A stretch of 64,000 bases of DNA from an uncultured Planctomycetota bacterium. GTDB taxonomy: Bacteria > Planctomycetota > Planctomycetia > Isosphaerales > Isosphaeraceae. The notes under the pieces are model-generated. The model worked only from the letters and a program-made list of their open reading frames with translations, was not told the origin of the DNA and ran no database searches. The stretch is from NCBI GenBank assembly GCA_963845755.1, contig CAWJTV010000013.1, positions 192,001 through 256,000 on the forward strand. The letters are read 5' to 3'. Shown in pieces: positions 10,440 to 44,430 of the stretch. The translations under genes were made by a program, and so were the position numbers. Positions within the stretch are counted from its first letter, which is position 1. Each line of letters starts with the position of its first letter.

Positions 10440-11493
10440 GGGTTGTTCTGAAATAACGGTCCTGTACACTATGTGGAGCACCAGGAGGCTCCTCGATGAT
10501 CCGCTATGCGACGCTCCGAGTTACCCCCAAGATCTTCCCCGCCTTGACCGGGCTGACTCTCGGGGAATTCGAGCGGCTCGCCGCGGAATTCGCGGCGGCG
10601 CACGCCCGAACCCGGGCCGCCTCGACTCGCACCAAGAAGGGCACGCCCCGCCGCCGCGCCCGGGCGCCGGCGCCCCGCCGTCGCTGGACCTGACCGACCG
10701 GCTGTTGATGGCGCTGGTCTGGCTGCGGATCTATCCCACCTACGAGCTGCTCGGCTGGCTCTTCGGGTTGGAGAAGTCCAACGCCTGGGAGAACGTCCAG
10801 GACGCCTTGGCGGTGCTCGAGACCCTGGCCGACTTCCCGTTCGAGCGGCCCGCCGCCGGCCGCACCCCGCTGGCCACCCCGGCGGCGGTCTTCGCCGCGT
10901 TCCCGGAGGTCAAGATCGTCATCGACGGCAAGGAGCAGCCGTTCCGACGCCCGCAGGGATGGGATCAGCAGAAGCCGTTCTACTCCGGGAAGAAGAAGCG
11001 GCACACGGTCAAGAACCAGGTCGTTTGCACGCCGGAAGGACGGATCGGTGGGGTTTCCGAGACGGTCCCTGGCTCGACCCACGACCTGACGATGATGCGG
11101 GGTGACGGCACGCTGGACCGGCTGGAGGAGGGGGAATCGGCGATGGCCGACAAGGCCTACACCGGAGGCCAGAAGGACCGCCCCGGGACGTCCCTGGTGG
11201 TGCCGACGAGGGCGACGCGAGGCCACCCGCTGACGGCGGAGCAACAGGCGGCGAACCGGGTGATCAGCGGGTACCGGGTGGTGATCGAACCTGTGATGGC
11301 CCAACTGAACCGATTTCAGGTGCTCAAGCAGGTCTTCCGCAGCGCGTTCCAGCGGCACACCGGGGTGATCCGGGTGGTGGCCGCGTTGGTTGACCGGCGG
11401 ATCGCGGCGGTGCCCCTGAAGACCTACGCAGTGAACTGATCCCGAAGGGGGTCAGGGGGACAGAGACGACTGTCGGCTATTCCAGAACAACCC
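10440..11493 (+). mobile_element. IS element (IS5/ISL2-like, DDE_Tnp_4 type)
   Basis: Inverted ends gggttgttctgaaata and tattccagaacaaccc; TA duplicated on both sides. Confidence 0.9.
10496..11439 (+). CDS. Transposase (HTH + DDE), frameshift near 10670
   Basis: FPALTGL N-terminus; IVIDGKEQPFRRP, YSGKKKRHTVKNQ, PGSTHD, ADKAY, RVVIE motifs. Confidence 0.88.
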
Positions 11494-11903: not shown

Positions 11904-14482
11904 GTGAACACCCTGGACTTCACTGGCGCACAGCGACGACTCGTGGAATCGGTGCTCACCGCCTTGAGGACGCTTGGATATCGCGATGAACTCGTCGCCG
12001 AAGATTATAAATATCTTGATCGATTCGTAAGTCGCCATCCCCAAAGGCAGATTCGGGCAGCCCTCTTCGGTAGGACTCCTGTATCATATGGGACAGCACT
12101 TATCGGCGTAGCAGAGGCCAATGGGTCACACGGCGCGTACTTTGGTTAACGAGCATCGTTCGCTAGGAGCCCCGGTGGTCTTGGAAATCCAAGATGAAAC
12201 CATCGGGATTTGGGCGGTCAGCAGGGAGGAAGGATCTGCCTATCTTGAGCACAGCGTTGATGAAGTTGGATTTCGGCGGTGGATAACAGACAACGAGAAA
12301 GCTCTCCAGCCGAATGAGTTCTTGCGGACGAAGGAAGGCGTCGGACGCGTCCCTACTTTTTTCCAACCTAGCCTTTTTGCGGGACTCATCCCCGAGTTGG
12401 AATTGAAAATCAGGAAGTCTCTTGATCCGATCTTGCTCCGCGAAATCAAGGCCGGAGTTGATGCGTATAGGGGGGCTAAAGGCTGCGACCCACCAGAACG
12501 AGAGTTATTCAAGCTCGCGTTCTGGATACTGACGGGCAAGGTCTTCGCCGATCGGAATCACAAGGACTTCGCCGATCTCGATTCTCCAGGTAGTCCCGAA
12601 ATCGTTCTCAATCGGGTCGCCAAGCATTACAACCAAACCGAATACAAGTTGTTGAATCATGAGGCCAGAGAAGCCGTGTTCAGCCACGTTTGGGGTCGCA
12701 CGGATTTCCGCAACCTTTCTGTGGAGGTACTCTCTCAGATCTGGTCAAGAACCCTTGTTAGCGAGGAAACTCGGAAGAAGCTAGGTATCCACCGGACGAG
12801 AAGGAGCATCGTTCGTTATATCGTCGATCGCATCCCTTTCGAATCCTTTAATCTGGAGCACAGACGAGTATTAGAGCCGTGTTCGGGCAGTGCGACATTT
12901 CTTGTTGCTGCGCTTGATCGCATGCGCGACATTCCCCCTGAGATCTCCGACCCGGTGGCCCGACATGTTTACTTCCAGCGAATGTTGACCGGATTTGAAC
13001 GAGATCCGTTTGGGGTTGAGATTGGGAGCCTATGTCTCGCGTTGGCCGACTATCCTAATCCAAATGGATGGAACATAAGGCCAAGCAATGTATTCAAATC
13101 GCCAGAATTCGGCCCTGCTTGCCAGGTTGCCAGGATCGTGTTATGCAATCCTCCTTTTGAAGATTTTGATGACGAGGAATACGAAGAAGTGAGGGCGACC
13201 ACAAGACATAAACCTGCGGAGTTGCTTGGCCGCATTCTCGACTCGCTCCATCCGCAAGGGGTGCTTGGCTTCGTTTTGCCACGGTCTTTCCTTGACCACC
13301 GTGGCTACGCGCCGATTCGCAGAAGGATTGTCGAGCGATACGGTAGCATCGACCTCTTGTCCCTCCCCGGGAAAGGATGGGAGCATGCCGACAAGGAGAC
13401 GGTACTCTTGATCGCGACAGATCCTGCCACGCACACGCAAGCAATCGTATCATTTGCGAAGGTGAAAGAGAAGCACTGGCGCGAATTCGAGCGGCTCCAT
13501 GAGGTCGATTTTCGTGCCGAAGAGAGCAAGTCAAGCGAAGACGCTGACAAATCGCTCGCGGTCCTCGAATTGAAAGAGGTTTGGGATTATCTCGCCTACT
13601 GCCCGCAGCTTGGCGAGATGGCAGAGGTTCGAAAGGGGATTGAATGGAGCTTAGACCAAGAAGAGCATCGCGACCTGCTTGTTCGATCAGAACCTCGGGA
13701 TGGCCATGATGATCGTGTTGGTATTGCGCCTCAAGCGTCACCGTTCTTAGCCTTCGAGTGCACCGCCCATTGCTTATCTCAACTTCGATACAGAGTATCA
13801 ACGACGGCCCAACTCATTTGAGCGGTCTTGGGACCAGCCGAAGATTATCCTGAATAGAAACCGCAAATCTCGGCCGGGACCGTGGAAACTCGCAGCATTT
13901 GCTGACTTCGAGGGGCTAGCGTGTTATGAAGCTTTCATCGCCGTATGGCCCAAAGACAACGGAATGATCGTGCCGATCGTCGCTGTCCTCAACGGGCCGG
14001 TCGCTAGCGCATTCGCGGCGGTAAAGGAGACGGGAGCCCATGTCATGGTAAAGACGATTCGCCAAATCCCCGTCCCATTCTTCACGACTCAACAAGCGGA
14101 AGAGATCGGGACGCTCGTGGCGGAGTATCGCAAGGCTATTGGAGCTGCTCATCCGCTTGCTGTCCAGCAAGCTTACGGGGAGGCCGATAGGCTGCTTCGT
14201 CAGATTGACGCAATTGTATTAGAGGCGTATGGCTTGCCGCCGAGGCTTGAACGCGTGCTTTTAGATTACTTCAACGGTTTCAACAACCGGCCGATTCCAT
14301 TTCGCTTCGCCGACTACTTTCCGCATGACTTCAAGCCGTTCTTTTCTCTGAGGGATTGGTTGACTCGGCGCCACGCTCAGGCAACGATCGAACGATTTCG
14401 GGGACAACCCCTGGAATTGCCCAGTCACATCCGCCGAGCGCTGGAATTGGCGACCAATGATGACGACGGGGGCGAAGAATGA
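11904..14482 (+). CDS. Amino (N6-adenine type) DNA methyltransferase, type IIG-like layout with TaqI_C-like TRD, two frameshifts
   Basis: Motif I VLEPCSGSATFL, motif IV NPPF, GVLGFVLP; C-terminal PKIILN...GPWKLAAF...AVLNGPVASAF. Joined from ORFs 11871-12149, 12121-13821 and the frame ending 14482. Confidence 0.85.
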
Positions 14483-14958
14483 ACGGCTATCTATTCGACA
14501 CGAACATCGTGAGTTTTTGGTTTCAGCAGAAGCCCGCGATAACCTCGCGCGTAGCAGCAATACCGAACGGGAATTTTTTATATATATCTGCTGTCACGAT
14601 AGGTGAAATTGAATTTGGCCATCTAAACATAAACGCCAAGGATCCTGCCAAACAAGCTGCTTTCAGGCGCTGGATTGCCGAGACCTTCCACTCGCACCGT
14701 CTAGAAATTACAAATGCCACCGCCGGGGAATACGCCAAACTCAAGCGAGCAGTTTGTGACACTTATTTCAAAAAAAATAAATATATAGAACTTCACGAAA
14801 ATGCCCAGGCTCATGTTCTGGGCGTGGACGAAAACGACCTTTGGATCGTATCCCAAGCGTACGAGCACGGCTTGAAGTTCGTTACATGCGACAAGATGAC
14901 TAGGATCAAAGAGGTCCTAGGACATATGGTCGATGTAAGCACTTGGCCTCAGGTATGA
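14479..14958 (+). CDS. PIN-domain (VapC-like) ribonuclease
   Basis: YLFDTNIVS, SAVTIGEI, DENDLWI, FVTCD; ATGA overlap with the MTase stop. Confidence 0.9.
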   Translation: MNGYLFDTNIVSFWFQQKPAITSRVAAIPNGNFLYISAVTIGEIEFGHLNINAKDPAKQAAFRRWIAETFHSHRLEITNATAGEYAKLKRAVCDTYFKKNKYIELHENAQAHVLGVDENDLWIVSQAYEHGLKFVTCDKMTRIKEVLGHMVDVSTWPQV

Positions 14959-16084: not shown

Positions 16085-16315
16085 ATGGACTGGCAAGATC
16101 GAATCAGCGTGGACCCGAAGGTGCTCGTCGGCAAACCCGTCATCAAGGGGACGCGCATTGCTGTCGAGTTTGTCGTGGACCTTCTGGGCCGAGGGTGGAC
16201 GACGGAGCAGATTCTCCGTGAATACGATCACCTGACCGCCGAAGACATCCAGGCGTGTTTGGCCTACGCGAGCGAAGTCCTCAAGTCGGAGCGGGTGTAC
16301 CTCTTGCCGACATGA
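16085..16315 (+). CDS. DUF433 antitoxin-like protein
   Basis: RISVDPKVLVGKPVIKGTRIAV...ILREYDHLTAEDIQACLAYA. Confidence 0.92.
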   Translation: MDWQDRISVDPKVLVGKPVIKGTRIAVEFVVDLLGRGWTTEQILREYDHLTAEDIQACLAYASEVLKSERVYLLPT

Positions 16316-16326
16316 AGGATCTGGCG

Positions 16327-16725
16327 ATGCGCTTTCTCGCCGATGAGAACGTCACCGGGACCGTGCTTCAGGAATTGCGGCAACGGGGGCATGATGTGCT
16401 CTCGGTCAAGGAGTCGATGCGCTCCGAGCGGGATGATGTGATCTTGGCCCGTGCCCAGGCGGAACAGCGAATCGTCATCACTCACGATAAGGACTTCGGT
16501 GAGTTGGCCTTCCGGTCGCAACTGCCTGCTTCCTGCGGCGTCATCTTGATTCGGTTGGCAGGGAGCGAATCCGATACGGACAACCAACGGATTCTCGAAG
16601 CCTTGGAGAGCCGGACGGATTGGACCGGGCATTTTTCGGTCATCACCGACAACAGGATCAGAATGCGAGCGTTGCCCGTAGTTCCGCCGCCCAGAGGTGC
16701 AAGACCGAGAAAGCGCAAGAAATGA
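16327..16725 (+). CDS. DUF5615 PIN-like toxin
   Basis: MRFLADENV...GHDV...ITHDKDFGEL...GVILIRL. Confidence 0.9.
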   Translation: MRFLADENVTGTVLQELRQRGHDVLSVKESMRSERDDVILARAQAEQRIVITHDKDFGELAFRSQLPASCGVILIRLAGSESDTDNQRILEALESRTDWTGHFSVITDNRIRMRALPVVPPPRGARPRKRKK

Positions 16726-16900
16726 CCGACGCCAGACACAACCTAATATATAAGTAATATCATATTCTGGGAAAACCGGGGACATAGGGAAAACCGGGAA
16801 GGGATGGGACCCGGGATCAAACTTTGTTATTTGTTTCCGGGCGGCTCGCTCATCGGCGAGTCAAACGGCTTTCGACCCTTCTCGAACAGACATTCACCCC

Positions 16901-17797
16901 AGCGCGGAATTGCGCGGAATTGGTGTCAGCGCGGAATTGGTGTCAGTGTGCGCCGTGAAAAGGTTTCGGATTTCCAGGGGTAACCATGCCCCCCGGCAAC
17001 TGGGTCGCTCCAGCCGGAAGCTATCGGAGCGGCGGTGGAGGTAACGAAACCGTCGGAGCCTTCGAGACAACGGGCCACAAGGTGGTCCGGCGATCAGGCA
17101 GGCCGTAACGCGAGTGAACGTTGAGCAGGCCTCGAAACATTTAATGTGGGCGCCGACCCGGCACTGACACGGGGAAGGCTGACATCGCTGACGATCAAGG
17201 CGAGGCTGGAATACGCCGGACCACGAGCGAACCGTCCCAGCGAGCCCGCCGGGGTAATGACGACGGCATGCCTGGATGGGGAAACCGAAGCAACACGGGA
17301 AACCCGCGCGGTGAGTCGCGTGGACTCAACCGGACGCCCGTGAGGGACAGGCCGGGCCGCCTGGGGTGGCGGAGAGCCTCGTAGTACCGTGGACGCCGGG
17401 TAACTCCGGTCGAGGGAAGGGGACTCAGTTCAAGGCCCGTGTCGGAAGGGGCCGACAGCCGGGAGATTGGCGCAAGCCTGCAAACTCCACCCACGGCTGG
17501 GACGTTCCGGAAGGCATGACATCTCATCGGCTCACCAGCCTACGTGGGTCGGTGAATGGGGCGCCTTGTCCGAGAGCCGGGTGCGGGAAATCCGCCTGCC
17601 CGGTTCGATGAGCGGGGTGTGGAAACGGGGCATGGTCGAGATGGTGGGACACCCGCAGACGAAAGGGCGGGCTAACAGGGGAAAACAAACTTCGACCTAA
17701 ACTACCGCGCCACACCTCGACTCTACTCATTTTTCCGCCGGAAAAATGAACTGACACCAGACACGACCGGAAAAATGAACTGACACCAGACACGACC
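16901..17797. repeat. GGTGTC-tagged palindrome split by the intron, with stuttered half-sites on both sides
   Basis: Joined exons give ggtgtcagttcatttttcc-gcc-ggaaaaatgaactgacacc; gcgcggaatt(ggtgtca) is repeated on the left and ccggaaaaatgaactgacaccagacacga occurs twice on the right. Confidence 0.85.
16948..17726 (+). ncRNA. ORF-less group II intron (779 nt)
   Basis: 5' GTGCG; domain V gagccgggtgcgggaaatccgcctgcccggttc (17574-17606); domain VI ending cgactctAC; EBS1 actgac(ac) at 17163 complementary to the 5' exon; no RT ORF. Confidence 0.9.
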
Positions 17798-17988
17798 AAA
17801 AGACTGATCGCCCCGAGCGGCGGCCGACGCGCCGACGGAGGGTCGGTGACGATCCGGCACCACCAGCCGGGCTCGGTTAGAGCCCCTCACCAATCCCAGG
17901 GGCGCGCTTCACACTTTTCGCGCGCAGAAGCGGAGCGATCGCGCCCGGAATTGTGGATCGCCCCGATCGCCGGCGTTCCGAGGGAGGT

Positions 17989-18501
17989 TCAGCGATTCGC
18001 CAGCTCCTTCCACGCCCACAGGCACGCCAGGAAGAAGCGTTTCTCATCGGAAGACGCCAGTTCCGTGAAGGACCGGACTCGACGCTCGACCAGATTGATC
18101 AGCAGGAGCACGTTCGACCGCTTGAATCGGTCCGTCAGGTCGTAGTCGGCGACGTGTCGTCGCTCCTGGAGTTCGACGAAGGTCTCCGCCAGTTCGCGGA
18201 TCTCCGCGGGGATCGCGAAGCTCCCCGGCAGTCCCTTCGCGACGCCTTTCTTGAGCGTCCCTCCGCCGAACGACTTGCAAGCCTCCTTCATGGCTCCGTG
18301 GACAAAGGCCCGCCCCAGGACCTGCCGGTACGGGGCCTGGTTGTGGTGCGACCCGATCTGGATGCGACAGGCCTCATCCACGAGCATATGGAAGAGGGCG
18401 TAATACGCCGAGGAGATCGCACGACGTAGGTTGGCCTGCTTCGGTTTCTTGGCATCGAGCTTCGCCAGCCGGACCGCTTGTTCCAGAAGGTCCTTGTACA
18501 C
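17989..18501 (-). CDS. HEPN-domain protein (putative toxin)
   Basis: LRRAISSAYYALFH and LQERRHVADYD motifs. Confidence 0.8.
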   Translation of the reverse strand: MYKDLLEQAVRLAKLDAKKPKQANLRRAISSAYYALFHMLVDEACRIQIGSHHNQAPYRQVLGRAFVHGAMKEACKSFGGGTLKKGVAKGLPGSFAIPAEIRELAETFVELQERRHVADYDLTDRFKRSNVLLLINLVERRVRSFTELASSDEKRFFLACLWAWKELANR

Positions 18502-42429: not shown

Positions 42430-44430
42430 CCCCAACAGAGTGGCATATAGCCCGTTGATACCTGATACTGTCATCCCTCTGAGCCGCCTCAGAGGGCGTT
42501 GAACCCGACCCTGACGCCGGATTGCTGCTTGCATGGAGGTGATCGTCCTCGCGACGTCCTACCACGGAGAGCGGACATGACACGACGATCGGCCTTGGGA
42601 CGGCACAGCCTCCGCATCCACCGGGAGTTCGTCCCCTCCCGCTGCCAGCTCCGCGCCCTGGCCTTGGCCTTCGAGCAGGCCCTCCCCATCATCCGGAGGC
42701 CGCTGACGACGCCGGCACGACCACAAATGTTCGTTGATTCTGATTTGAATTCGTTCACACAACCAGGCCGTTCGGGGGCCCTCCGATGACCGAACCCATC
42801 GACCGCCGCGCCGCCTTGTACGCCAGGGTCTCCACCGAACAGCAGGCCCAAGAGGACACGATCGCCAGTCAACTCGATCTGTTGCGCCGGCGGATCCAGG
42901 CCGATGGCCTGACCGTCGCCCAGGAACTCCAATTCGCCGACGACGGTTATTCGGGCGAGACCTTCCGGCGCCCCGCCCTGGAACGGTTGCGCGACACGGC
43001 CGCCGCCGGGGCGATCGACCGGATCTACATCGAGTGTCCCGACCGATTGGCACGGGATTACCCGTATCAGATGGTCGTGGTTGACGAGCTGCGCCGCCAG
43101 GGCGTCGAGGTCGTCTTCCTCAATCACGACCTCGATGAGAGCCCCGAGGGTCAACTGCTGTTGCAAGTCCAGGGGATCATCGCCGAATACGAGCGGGTCA
43201 AGGCCCGTGAGAAGTGTCGCCGCGGCCGGCTCTACGCGGCGCGGTCGGGCCAGGTCAGCGTCCTGGGCGGTGCCGCCTTACGGATACCATTACCACACCA
43301 AGCAGGAGGGAGGTGGCGCAGGCCCGGTATGTCGTCCAGTTCGCCGAGGCCCAGGTGGTCCGAGAGATCTTCACCTGGGTGGGGATCGAAGGATGTTCGC
43401 TCAGTCAGGTGTGCCGACGATTGCGAGAACGCGGGCTCCTTACCCGCACGGGCAAGGCGCATTGGGATCGGGCCACGGTCCTGGGCATGCTGCGCAACCC
43501 GGCTTACATGGGGACAGCCCACTTCAACAAGGTCCATTGCGTCCCGGCCCGTCCCCGGTTGCGCCCGCGTCGGGGAGTCCCCGAGTTTCCACGGCGACAC
43601 ACCGCCAAAGCGGCGACGCCCCCCGAGGACCAGATCCCGATCCCGGTGCCGGCGATCGTGGAGCCGGCCCTGTTCGAGGCCGTGCAGGAGCGGCTGGCGG
43701 AGCACCGCCGACATCCCGGCCAGGCGGCCCCCCGGCCGCGCCATCTGCTGGCGGGCTTGGTGGTGTGCCAGCGGTGTGGTTACGCGTATCGCGGTCGGGC
43801 CATGAAGAAGAAGGGAGGGAGTCGCTATGGCTATTACCGCTGTTATGGGGCGGAGGCCGAGTCCTTCGCCGGCCGGGCCCGGATCTGCGACAATCCGGCG
43901 ATCCGGATCGAACGTCTGGACGAGGCGGTGTGGTCCGATGTGCGCGGGTTGTTGCTGGAGCCGGAGCGGTTGGCTGAGGAATTCGAGCGGCGGTTGAGTC
44001 GGGCGAACCGAGGCGAGGGGACGACTCAGTCGAGTCGGAGCCTGGACAAGTTGATCGGTCAGGTCCGCCGCAGGCTGGCGCGGCTGGTGGAGATGTACGC
44101 CGACGGATACATCGAGAAGGAGAAATTCCAGAGAGATATGGATATTTCTCGAACACGAATGTCAGAATTGGAGTTGGAGCGTCGGGCGATGGACCAGGAG
44201 GAACAGCAACGGGAGGAGTTACGGTTGGTGATGGGTCGGATCGAGGAATTCGGGGCGCAGGTACGCGCCGGTTTGGATACCAGCGACGTGGCGACGCGTC
44301 GTCGGATCATTTGTGCACTGGTCAAGAAGGTCGAGATCGATGCGGAGGCGGTTCATATTGTGTATCGTGTGAGCCCTCGCCCTTTTGCCCAAACGGCCCC
44401 GACAGACGGTAACATGCCACACTGTTGGGG
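42430..44430 (+). mobile_element. Minimal large-serine-recombinase element (about 2.0 kb)
   Basis: 17-bp inverted ends ccccaacag(a/t)gtggcat at 42430-42446 and 44414-44430 enclose only two ORFs. Confidence 0.8.
42577..42789 (+). CDS. Small ORF coupled to the recombinase
   Basis: GGAG RBS; ATGA overlap with the recombinase start. Confidence 0.6.
   Translation: MTRRSALGRHSLRIHREFVPSRCQLRALALAFEQALPIIRRPLTTPARPQMFVDSDLNSFTQPGRSGALR

Follow-up and report, generated by a model that had tools for sequence, protein, structure and literature searches.

The DNA analysed here (the window) is a stretch of 64,000 nucleotides from an uncultured planctomycete of the family Isosphaeraceae, and it carries on its forward strand, at positions 16948-17726, a group II intron of 779 nt that lacks a reverse transcriptase (RT) gene. 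Judging from comparison with related copies, we consider it probable that this intron is a non-autonomous derivative, deleted for its open reading frame (ORF), of a family of IIB-like introns whose intron-encoded protein (IEP) has no endonuclease (En) domain, and that it retrohomed into a palindromic repeat unit by pairing of its exon-binding sites (EBS) with the intron-binding sites (IBS) of the target. The family is abundant in relatives of this genome. An initial annotation of the window had already proposed an ORF-less group II intron with an IEP remnant; the ends, hairpin, loop, stub and bulge on which it relied were all recovered, and the RT gene is indeed gone, with about 15-25 codons left.

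Intron ends, domains and guide sequences

The segment 16948-17726 is a real group II intron. A scan of the whole window against Rfam at the gathering threshold returned one match, RF02003 (group-II-D1D4-4; 81.7 bits at 16974-17113, gathering score 49), and a permissive scan of 16700-18000 placed RF00029, the model of domains V and VI (DV and DVI), at 17572-17702 with 37.5 bits. This narrowly misses the gathering score of 40 of that model, since DVI carries an insertion of about 60 nt that has to be skipped. Both scans correspond to checks suggested in the initial annotation. The DV portion aligns in full to RF00029 and, in the fold of 17563-17726, adopts the expected shape with an AGC triad and a 2-nt CU bulge. 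DVI is long, and in the centroid structure its basal helix (GAG-CGGGGUGUGG / CCACACCUCG-A-CUC) leaves A 17720 bulged, 7 nt from the 3' end. The intron opens with GTGCGCC at 16948 and closes with ...CTCGACTCTAC at 17726, and the group II end signals are present (GUGCG at 16948, ...UAC at 17724-17726). Other copies in the same genome agree with it up to exactly these two points and diverge beyond them, so that the ends are fixed independently and are not a guess. The ribozyme is IIB-like, as judged by its size (about 680 nt without the stub that remains of domain IV, DIV) and by the full IIB-like architecture of domain I (D1); planctomycete names occur at no place in Toro and Martinez-Abarca 2013, which was consulted for the intron class.

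The features of the locus are as follows (all on the + strand).

16948-17726: ORF-less group II intron, 779 nt (Rfam matches, ends from other copies, no RT ORF)
16902-16947: 5' exon, made of tandem copies of the outer left arm of the hairpin (gcgcggaatt, gcgcggaattggtgtca, gcgcggaattggtgtcagt; sequence and arm census)
16934-16937: candidate IBS2, GAAU, exon positions -14 to -11, which would pair with AUUU of the candidate EBS2
16940-16947: IBS1, core GUCAGU at 16942-16947, 8 nt with its extension (complementarity to EBS1)
17138-17145: candidate EBS2, the variable internal-loop strand CAUUUAAU between conserved CGAAA and GUGGG (consensus fold, covariation)
17163-17170: EBS1, core ACUGAC at 17163-17168, in a terminal hairpin loop (consensus fold; 22 of 29 copies pair at 5/6 or better with their own exon)
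17440-17565: DIV stub with a DIVa-like hairpin, a remnant of the IEP N-terminus (GCA in place of the start codon) and a short remnant of the C-terminus (alignment to relatives, fold)
17574-17606: DV, AGC triad at 17575-17577 and CU bulge at 17596-17597 (RF00029 alignment, fold)
17610-17726: DVI, with a distal insertion of about 60 nt, bulged branch-point A 17720 and 3' end ...UAC (centroid fold; insertion by alignment with short-DVI relatives)
17727-17758: 3' exon, comprising the remaining part of the left arm (tcatttttcc), the gcc loop and the complete right arm of the hairpin (sequence)
17740-17797: right arm plus 10 nt, twice in tandem as a 29-nt unit, whose minus strand reads as two empty targets GGTGTCAGT|TCATTTTTCC

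The distal DVI insertion (17623-17709) is common to the C22 intron and the C6 3' fragment of the same genome, the G007 copies and L172; L164, L169 and the copies of G021 and G003 lack it.

Removal of the intron joins ggtgtcagt (16939-16947) to tcatttttcc-gcc-ggaaaaatgaactgacacc (17727-17758) and restores a perfect hairpin with 19-bp arms, as the initial annotation had it. The guide that addresses this site is equally clear. The loop actgacac (17163-17170) and the exon sequence gtgtcagt (16940-16947) are reverse complements at 8 of 8 positions, a match expected by chance at one fixed loop position with a probability of about 1.5e-5, and in the D1 model derived with RNAalifold from 20 related copies actgacac is the terminal loop at the tip of a small hairpin with CCCG/CGGG as its closing pairs. 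The complementarity to the last eight exon bases had been noticed before; the consensus fold now puts actgac in the EBS1 loop, and this loop is EBS1. The same loop could be parsed in 29 of the 32 copies for which this was attempted, and compared with the last six bases of the respective exon (G-U pairs allowed) it pairs 6/6 in 14 copies, 5/6 in eight, 4/6 in six and 3/6 in one; one of the 4/6 rows (L031) is mis-registered by 2 nt and should be ignored.

A candidate for the second guide, which the initial annotation had not been able to discern, lies on the strand 5' of the EBS1 hairpin, which is unpaired in the consensus and reads CGAAA-NNNNNNNN-GUGGG, with CAUUUAAU in the window copy. Its positions 2-5 pair 4/4 with the exon at -13 to -10 in 38% of the cognate combinations (11 of 29), as opposed to 6% of 776 non-cognate ones, a contrast that is suggestive and no formal test, since the copies are related. 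The clear cases comprise GACC/GGUC, GUCC/GGAC, GUUU/AAAC, UUUU/AAAA and AACCC/GGGUU, and within the lineage that inserts after GGTGTCAGT the loop changes together with the exon, from AUUU-AAAU in L172 and L169 to GUUU-AAAC in L164. In the window copy AUUU stands opposite GAAU at -14 to -11, with one G-U pair, and the loop is identical (CATTTAAT) in L172, an independent ORF-less copy. During ordinary EBS/IBS-guided retrohoming EBS1 (ACUGAC, up to 8 nt) would pair with GUCAGU, and at the same insertion the AUUU of the candidate EBS2 would pair with GAAU.

Target repeat, related copies and loss of the reading frame

The exon bases that are targeted form the conserved left end of a unit of 26-30 nt, roughly GAAATT-GGTGTCAGTTCATTTTTCC, which is dispersed in the genus both as inverted doublets, i.e. 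hairpins resembling REPINs (paired units of repetitive extragenic palindromic sequences, REPs), and as tandem arrays. The claim of the initial annotation that the intron sits in a dispersed repeat has to be divided here. The exact 19-nt arm occurs in this genome only at the window locus, where the right arm is present as two tandem copies, and in this strict sense it is not dispersed. The repeat family itself is real: searches with mismatches and with nhmmer detected about 12 arms at 8-9 diverged loci in this genome, and the sister species G001 contributes about 12 distinct empty loci that contain the exact target. The conclusion that there is no dispersed family, to which the exact-arm census had led, was overturned by these searches. 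An empty paralogous hairpin is intact at C36:189828-189884 with a different IBS1 (GTGAGT), and iterated arm pieces ending in GGTGTCAG are found without an intron at C22:54440 and in the sister genome.

When G001 was queried with the initial 62 nt of the 3' flank, at least 25 matches to the hairpin part were obtained (40 of 142 candidates scored). The 16-mer GGTGTCAGTTCNTTTT is present in 14 of 15 stretches fetched, in 11 of them on both strands, i.e. as inverted pairs; in two cases a pair of stretches seems to be a single sequence present on two contigs, which leaves the number of loci given above. The G001 consensus, agaaattGGTGTCAGTTCATTTTTCC-loop-GGAAAAATGAACTGACACCaatttc, contains the exact unoccupied target, and its arm pieces are iterated in tandem as in the window. 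Other introns of the family are inserted 7 nt further along the unit, at GGTGTCAGTTCATTTT| in L054 and likewise in L051 and L060, or in a related unit at GGGGTCAGA-CCTAGT|.

Insertion at the same junction has recurred. In this genome a 5' intron fragment (C5:506492-506689), 99.5% identical to the window copy over 198 nt, follows ...caacgggtgtcagt, i.e. the same nine bases with another upstream flank, and a 3' fragment on C6 is 98% identical to the window copy. The C5 copy is broken at position 198, and the next sequence (C5:506292-506491, minus strand) opens with a hairpin of 19-bp stem, actttctaaatccacggcc-tct-ggccgtggatttagaaagt; neither the sequence past this break nor that before the C6 fragment is a high-copy repeat in the genome, and their ORFs are uninformative. 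When two public collections were scanned with the 19-nt GGTGTCAGT|intron junction, nine matches were obtained among genomes, four of them with further intron similarity (L156, L157, L160, L161), and 14 among metagenomes, six of them with such similarity (L164, L165, L169, L170, L172, L175). The flanks of L164 and L175 are identical and these two are counted once, which gives at least nine other public contigs with GGTGTCAGT|intron in addition to the second locus in this genome and answers the question, raised in the initial annotation, whether other copies sit at ggtgtcagt|tc. L168 resembles the family by eye only, and the 3' junction had no match in the genome collection. A search for the orthologous empty site in five related genomes revealed no syntenic locus: the upstream flank had no long match and the downstream gene matched elsewhere.

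Among the copies at GGTGTCAGT| are the RT-encoding relatives that the initial annotation had expected as parents. L164 is an intron of 1956 nt with an open frame of 453 codons and EBS1 AUUGAC (6/6, one G-U), situated between ...GGTGTCAGT and the 3' exon TCAGTTTTTCC...; L169, of 1963 nt, likewise has a 453-codon open frame, with EBS1 ACUGAC, and is followed by TCATT at the contig end. Both are metagenome contigs. L172 is a second ORF-less intron (755 nt, 72% identical overall) with the same EBS1 and a different DIV stub. Some intron remains in the family are of unusual form. L156 contains (at about 1201-1400, matching strand) a mini-intron of about 190 nt, in which the first 14 intron nucleotides are fused to DV-DVI, at ggaaatGGTGTCAGT| after iterated gggaggaaat units. 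Tandem arrays of target units contain short 5' stubs of introns in L054 (473-600; G012:C35), in L160 (about 1201-1300) and on C34 near 636792. Of the four repeat units seen upstream of the L054 intron, three have the first five intron bases at their end, and the stub before the next unit measures 55 nt in L160 and 33 nt on C34.

Beyond this genome and its sister the intron is widespread. Matches to its DNA were found in 28 of 61 genomes searched, this one counted, and in 24 of 36 within its own family, and the relatives of the IEP come mostly from Planctomycetota metagenome-assembled genomes (MAGs) in the collection of named genomes. G003 and G007 contain two additional ORF-less copies each, and G021 also has an ORF-less form. 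When this label is mapped on a D1-D3 tree with 30 rows, at least three changes are required, three being forced by well-supported branches, so that the loss of the ORF has been recurrent.

The extent of the deletion can be read from the alignment. Homology to ORF-containing relatives reaches intron position ~568-595 and resumes at ~615, just before DV; the 5' part retained spans the ribosome-binding region and some 15-25 IEP codons, with the start codon now GCA, and weak similarity to the final IEP codons is seen between these two points. The suggestion in the initial annotation that the DIV stub resembles an IEP N-terminus is thereby confirmed, the stub being homologous to the first 15-25 codons of the relatives' IEP; the longest ORFs inside the intron had no Pfam match. 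A three-helix motif around the former start codon is kept in ORF-containing and ORF-less copies alike, and by analogy with DIVa, the maturase-binding site of other group II introns (PMC2882425), this DIVa-like motif would be the expected maturase-binding site.

The intact IEP of the relative L057 (432 aa) consists of RVT_1 and GIIM domains only and has no endonuclease domain. With an intact relative's IEP as tblastn query, this genome yielded two cognate RT genes, on C22 and C6, at least 60% identical to it and both interrupted, all other RT matches being at most 35% identical. No intact closely related IEP was found in this assembly by tblastn, and as the assembly is 88% complete this does not prove its absence. 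The initial annotation had envisaged a helper RT in the same genome, an expectation not borne out by the assembly. Since both cognate genes are interrupted, the window copy is probably stranded now, unless a helper resides in the unassembled part of the genome.

Different parts of the window copy point to different relatives. Its positions 1-549 are 79% identical to the C22 intron, as opposed to 83-85% for L164 and L169, and its last 160 nt, including the DVI insertion missing in L164 and L169, are 94% identical to C22. The copy thus looks chimeric in these alignments, with D1-D3 apparently from the lineage that targets GGTGTCAGT and DV-DVI from a resident C22-type intron. Recombination, or template switching by the RT, between two resident introns would fit this pattern and could also account for the deletion of the ORF.

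State of the window copy and competing explanations

As far as can be predicted from its sequence, the RNA of the window copy keeps domains I-III, the DIVa-like stub, DV and DVI with the branch A, and it could splice and reverse-splice with a cognate RT/maturase supplied in trans. Several observations count against our explanation. The RF00029 match stays below its gathering score. The candidate EBS2 pairing comprises 3-4 bp, is A/U-rich and shifts in register by 1-2 nt between copies, 18 of the 29 cognate pairs fall short of 4/4, and the C5 copy has no IBS2 match. The repeat family is small and diverged in this genome; the second locus with the same IBS1 (C5) and the C6 3' piece are fragments only, as are most copies at GGTGTCAGT|, which are truncated. 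No gene for a Y1 transposase (the enzymes discussed in the next section) lies near the window locus, and the link of the hairpin family to such genes comes from few loci of the sister genome. In public sequencing runs at most 19% of the sampled words of the locus were present in any run, and at most 12% in RNA runs. Finally, the window copy stands alone on a long terminal branch (length 0.18) beside a clade of 13 ORF-containing copies, and it deviates at 10 of 148 D1 columns that are invariant in the 19 other copies, more than any other copy. In view of these changes and of the branch, some decay is possible.

The last two observations are also arguments for regarding the window copy as a dead relic that no longer splices and whose exon match records a past insertion only. 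This is the alternative that we take most seriously, and we regard it as unlikely. It is in keeping with the lack of a cognate helper in the assembly, with the intergenic position of the intron, in which nothing selects for splicing, and with the fact that copies of bacterial introns are mostly truncated or inactive (PMC4424553). However, the D1 consensus of the 20 related copies contains 85 pairs, 33 with compensatory changes, and 81 of the 85 (95%) are canonical in the window copy, which equals the level of ORF-containing copies, the range in other copies being 77-85. Of its pairs, 19 depart from the majority and 15 of these stay canonical; several double compensatory changes are present. 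The catalytic DV and the DVI branch site are intact. Four of the 10 unusual positions fall in one hairpin (caggggtaaccatgcccccc; caggggtaacca..), whose variant form recurs in two metagenome introns that encode an RT, L164 and L169, as well as in the fragments L160, L165 and L170, and is therefore a trait of the lineage, not decay. Besides, the C5 copy, 99.5% identical over its 198 nt, implies recent movement.

The CU bulge of DV, at which the initial annotation correctly saw a departure from AY, was considered as a sign of a defect and discarded. The bulge is AC in C22, L164 and L172, CU in the window copy, L027, L049 and L054, and CC in L169, so all three forms are found in the family, the last together with an open RT frame.

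A second alternative, advanced in the initial annotation, holds that the intron reads the DNA hairpin as a structure, in the manner of class IIC introns, with the hairpin in place of IBS2. The two arms of the occupied site form a perfect inverted doublet, inverted pairs make up 11 of the 15 G001 stretches, the proposed EBS2 pairing is short, and En-less introns use single-stranded DNA at replication forks, where hairpins can extrude (PMC4424553). Nevertheless we find this very improbable. The insertion lies within the 5' arm, 9 nt from its start, and not 3' of the stem; the ribozyme has the size and the full D1 of IIB-like introns; L164 is located in a direct tandem array of units without an inverted partner, and the available sequence around C5, L156 and L172 contains no partner arm that would match. 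The covariation of EBS2 with IBS2 (AUUU:AAAU versus GUUU:AAAC) means that a hairpin need not replace IBS2. The least credible proposal, which we give hardly any weight, is that a Y1 transposase moved the intron as passenger DNA in a REPIN-like doublet, without retrohoming: the intron does lie between two inverted arms, related units adjoin Y1 genes and the tandem arm iterations suggest strand-specific processing at GGTGTCAG, but what other copies have in common is limited to the 9-nt GGTGTCAGT and the A/U-rich IBS2 region and does not extend to the wider arm or flank, as predicted by guide-RNA homing and not by transposition of whole doublets.

Y1 transposases, known systems and neighbouring elements

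The repeat units may have a connection with Y1 transposases. The profile PF01797 (Y1) has 10 matches in this genome, nine of which were inspected. Four of these nine genes are bounded by inverted GGGGACATAACGAAT-type ends with ggaaaaac iterations and one further gene is flanked by GGGGTCAGACCAGGTTTCGGGTTTTTTC arrays, so that other unit types (GGGGACATA, GGGGTCAGACC) accompany five of nine. The C22-type intron inserts at the motif GGGGACATA|, with which its EBS1 UAUGUC pairs 6/6, and a 33-nt stub of a C22-type intron is present in such an array upstream of a Y1 gene on C34. Arrays or inverted ends of GGGGACATA after iterated ggaaaaac units surround Y1 genes at C34:636674-636792, C18:2384-3259 and C47:224334-224432, and the window has one such motif of its own.

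16778-16786, + strand: empty GGGGACATA site, the target motif of the C22-type intron, 160 nt upstream of the intron (motif match)

The hairpin family that the window intron occupies may have a similar association in G001, where the 16-mer is found at two of the 13 Y1 loci fetched: at L203 a GGTGTCAG array lies about 45 nt upstream of the Y1 start codon, and at L207 hairpins lie about 0.85 kb from another Y1 gene. The intron fragment L051 is located between a GGTGTCAG array and a Y1 gene. We infer that the hairpin may be a REPIN-like non-autonomous partner of such Y1 transposases. As a tentative extension, which we hold to be possible and somewhat doubtful, the En-less intron family as a whole may have specialised on hairpin-forming units of Y1/HUH systems (similar to IS200 or to REPINs with their REP-associated tyrosine transposases, RAYTs), with EBS1 and EBS2 shifting along the unit: GGGGACATA|, GGGGTCAGA-CCTAGT|, GGTGTCAGTTCATTTT|, GGTGTCAGT|. 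If so, a retroelement would parasitise the single-stranded DNA substrates of a DNA transposase, and the 5' stubs within tandem arrays would be scars left by the transposase processing occupied units. Small proteins are encoded downstream of repeat islands on C17 and C42.

Among known systems, ORF-less introns are rare in bacteria and nearly always occur alongside related introns that encode an IEP, the known target modes of bacterial introns are homing sites, terminators and attC sites, and En-less introns use primers at replication forks (PMC4424553). The closest analogue of the window intron is formed by the ORF-less TeI3 introns of Thermosynechococcus elongatus, which are mobilised in trans by driver IEPs (Mohr, Ghanem and Lambowitz 2010, PMC2882425). 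There, too, most of the RT gene has been lost through a deletion in DIV that spared DIVa and left remnants of both protein termini, the EBS/IBS pairing with the flanks is good, related introns that encode an RT exist, the guides have diverged to new sites, and other mobile or repeated DNA is the preferred place of insertion. The two cases differ in that the IEP has no En domain here, whereas TeI4h has D and En domains, the ORF was lost at least three times here and once in TeI3, the cognate RT genes of this genome are broken, and the target is a short palindromic repeat unit here and other introns or insertion sequence (IS) elements in Thermosynechococcus (PMC2882425). The group of RmInt1 and its relatives in Sinorhizobium meliloti, IIB-like introns that home into IS elements, is similar in having an RT/maturase without an endonuclease domain, in homing guided by EBS1, EBS2 and EBS3 and in using a target in a repeated mobile element, which is, however, an IS transposase region instead of a repeat unit of 26-30 nt (PMC5894124, PMC4615759). 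The protein is also distant, as in a tblastn search of plasmids the relative's IEP was only 37.5% identical to its best Sinorhizobium match, an intron RT, and 30-36% identical to others, with one Planctomyces match at 67%.

Class IIC introns, including the HYERs, which are ORF-less (PMC11754743), resemble the present case in their association with DNA stem-loops, in the occurrence of ORF-less forms and in their affinity for single-stranded DNA (PMC4424553, PMC11754743). However, they insert after a terminator or attC site with little pairing of the EBS2 type (PMC4424553), in contrast to an intron that is IIB-like in size and D1, lies inside the arm and has an 8-nt EBS1 match in addition to a candidate EBS2, and that does not fit the description of class IIC. 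On the side of the target, the REP/REPIN-RAYT systems likewise comprise palindromic units arranged as inverted doublets that adjoin Y1 transposase genes (PMC3116915, PMC3337134), and REPs are hot spots of IS insertion (Tobes and Pareja 2006, PMC1525189). A table in the latter work lists two of nine group II intron copies of Pseudomonas putida KT2440 as REP-associated, and in the open-access literature searched this entry is the sole joint mention found of introns with REP, REPIN or RAYT as targets; the present case differs in that the guide of the intron is itself complementary to the repeat.

The window intron is a good example of known behaviour and not a new kind of element, with nothing out of the ordinary in the copy itself as far as annotation is concerned; what deserves further attention is the apparent targeting, across the family, of transposase-associated repeats. 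With at least three independent losses of the ORF and a clear match of guide to repeat, the family lends itself, as a natural system, to the study of two questions: how ribozymes that have lost their protein gene survive on borrowed RTs, and how the guides of introns shift along a target that is repeated. Should the link to Y1 repeats hold, it would join two kinds of mobile elements, both of them reliant on the single-stranded DNA of replication forks. As protein-light tools for DNA targeting, compact ribozymes of the IIB-like type whose EBS1 is long and programmable may also be of practical interest (PMC11754743).

The intron of the window is intergenic and has the following neighbours.

10471-11439: IS5-type DDE transposase
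14479-14958: PIN-domain gene
16255-16725, same strand as the intron: DUF5615/PIN-like gene, ending 220 nt upstream of the intron

Read-through from the DUF5615/PIN-like gene might lead to transcription of the intron.

The introns of this genome are themselves invaded by a third layer of mobile DNA, an element of about 2 kb that inserts at one conserved motif of RT genes. It is 2,020 bp long in the C22 intron (C22:805-2824), has terminal inverted repeats (ACGCCCCCAACAATGTTGC...) and encodes a large serine recombinase. Its six copies are 95-100% identical, the others being located at C24:276-2291, C16:2839-4853, C3:156926-158944, C47:14626-16639 and C6:31937-33952, and every one of them sits at the same conserved motif (..GSP|ISP..) of group II intron RT genes, which belong to two intron families with no more than 25-35% identity. 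In other MAGs, too, many IEP matches break off at residue 235-239. A recombinase segment 66% similar to this element is found in the window at about 42819-43531.

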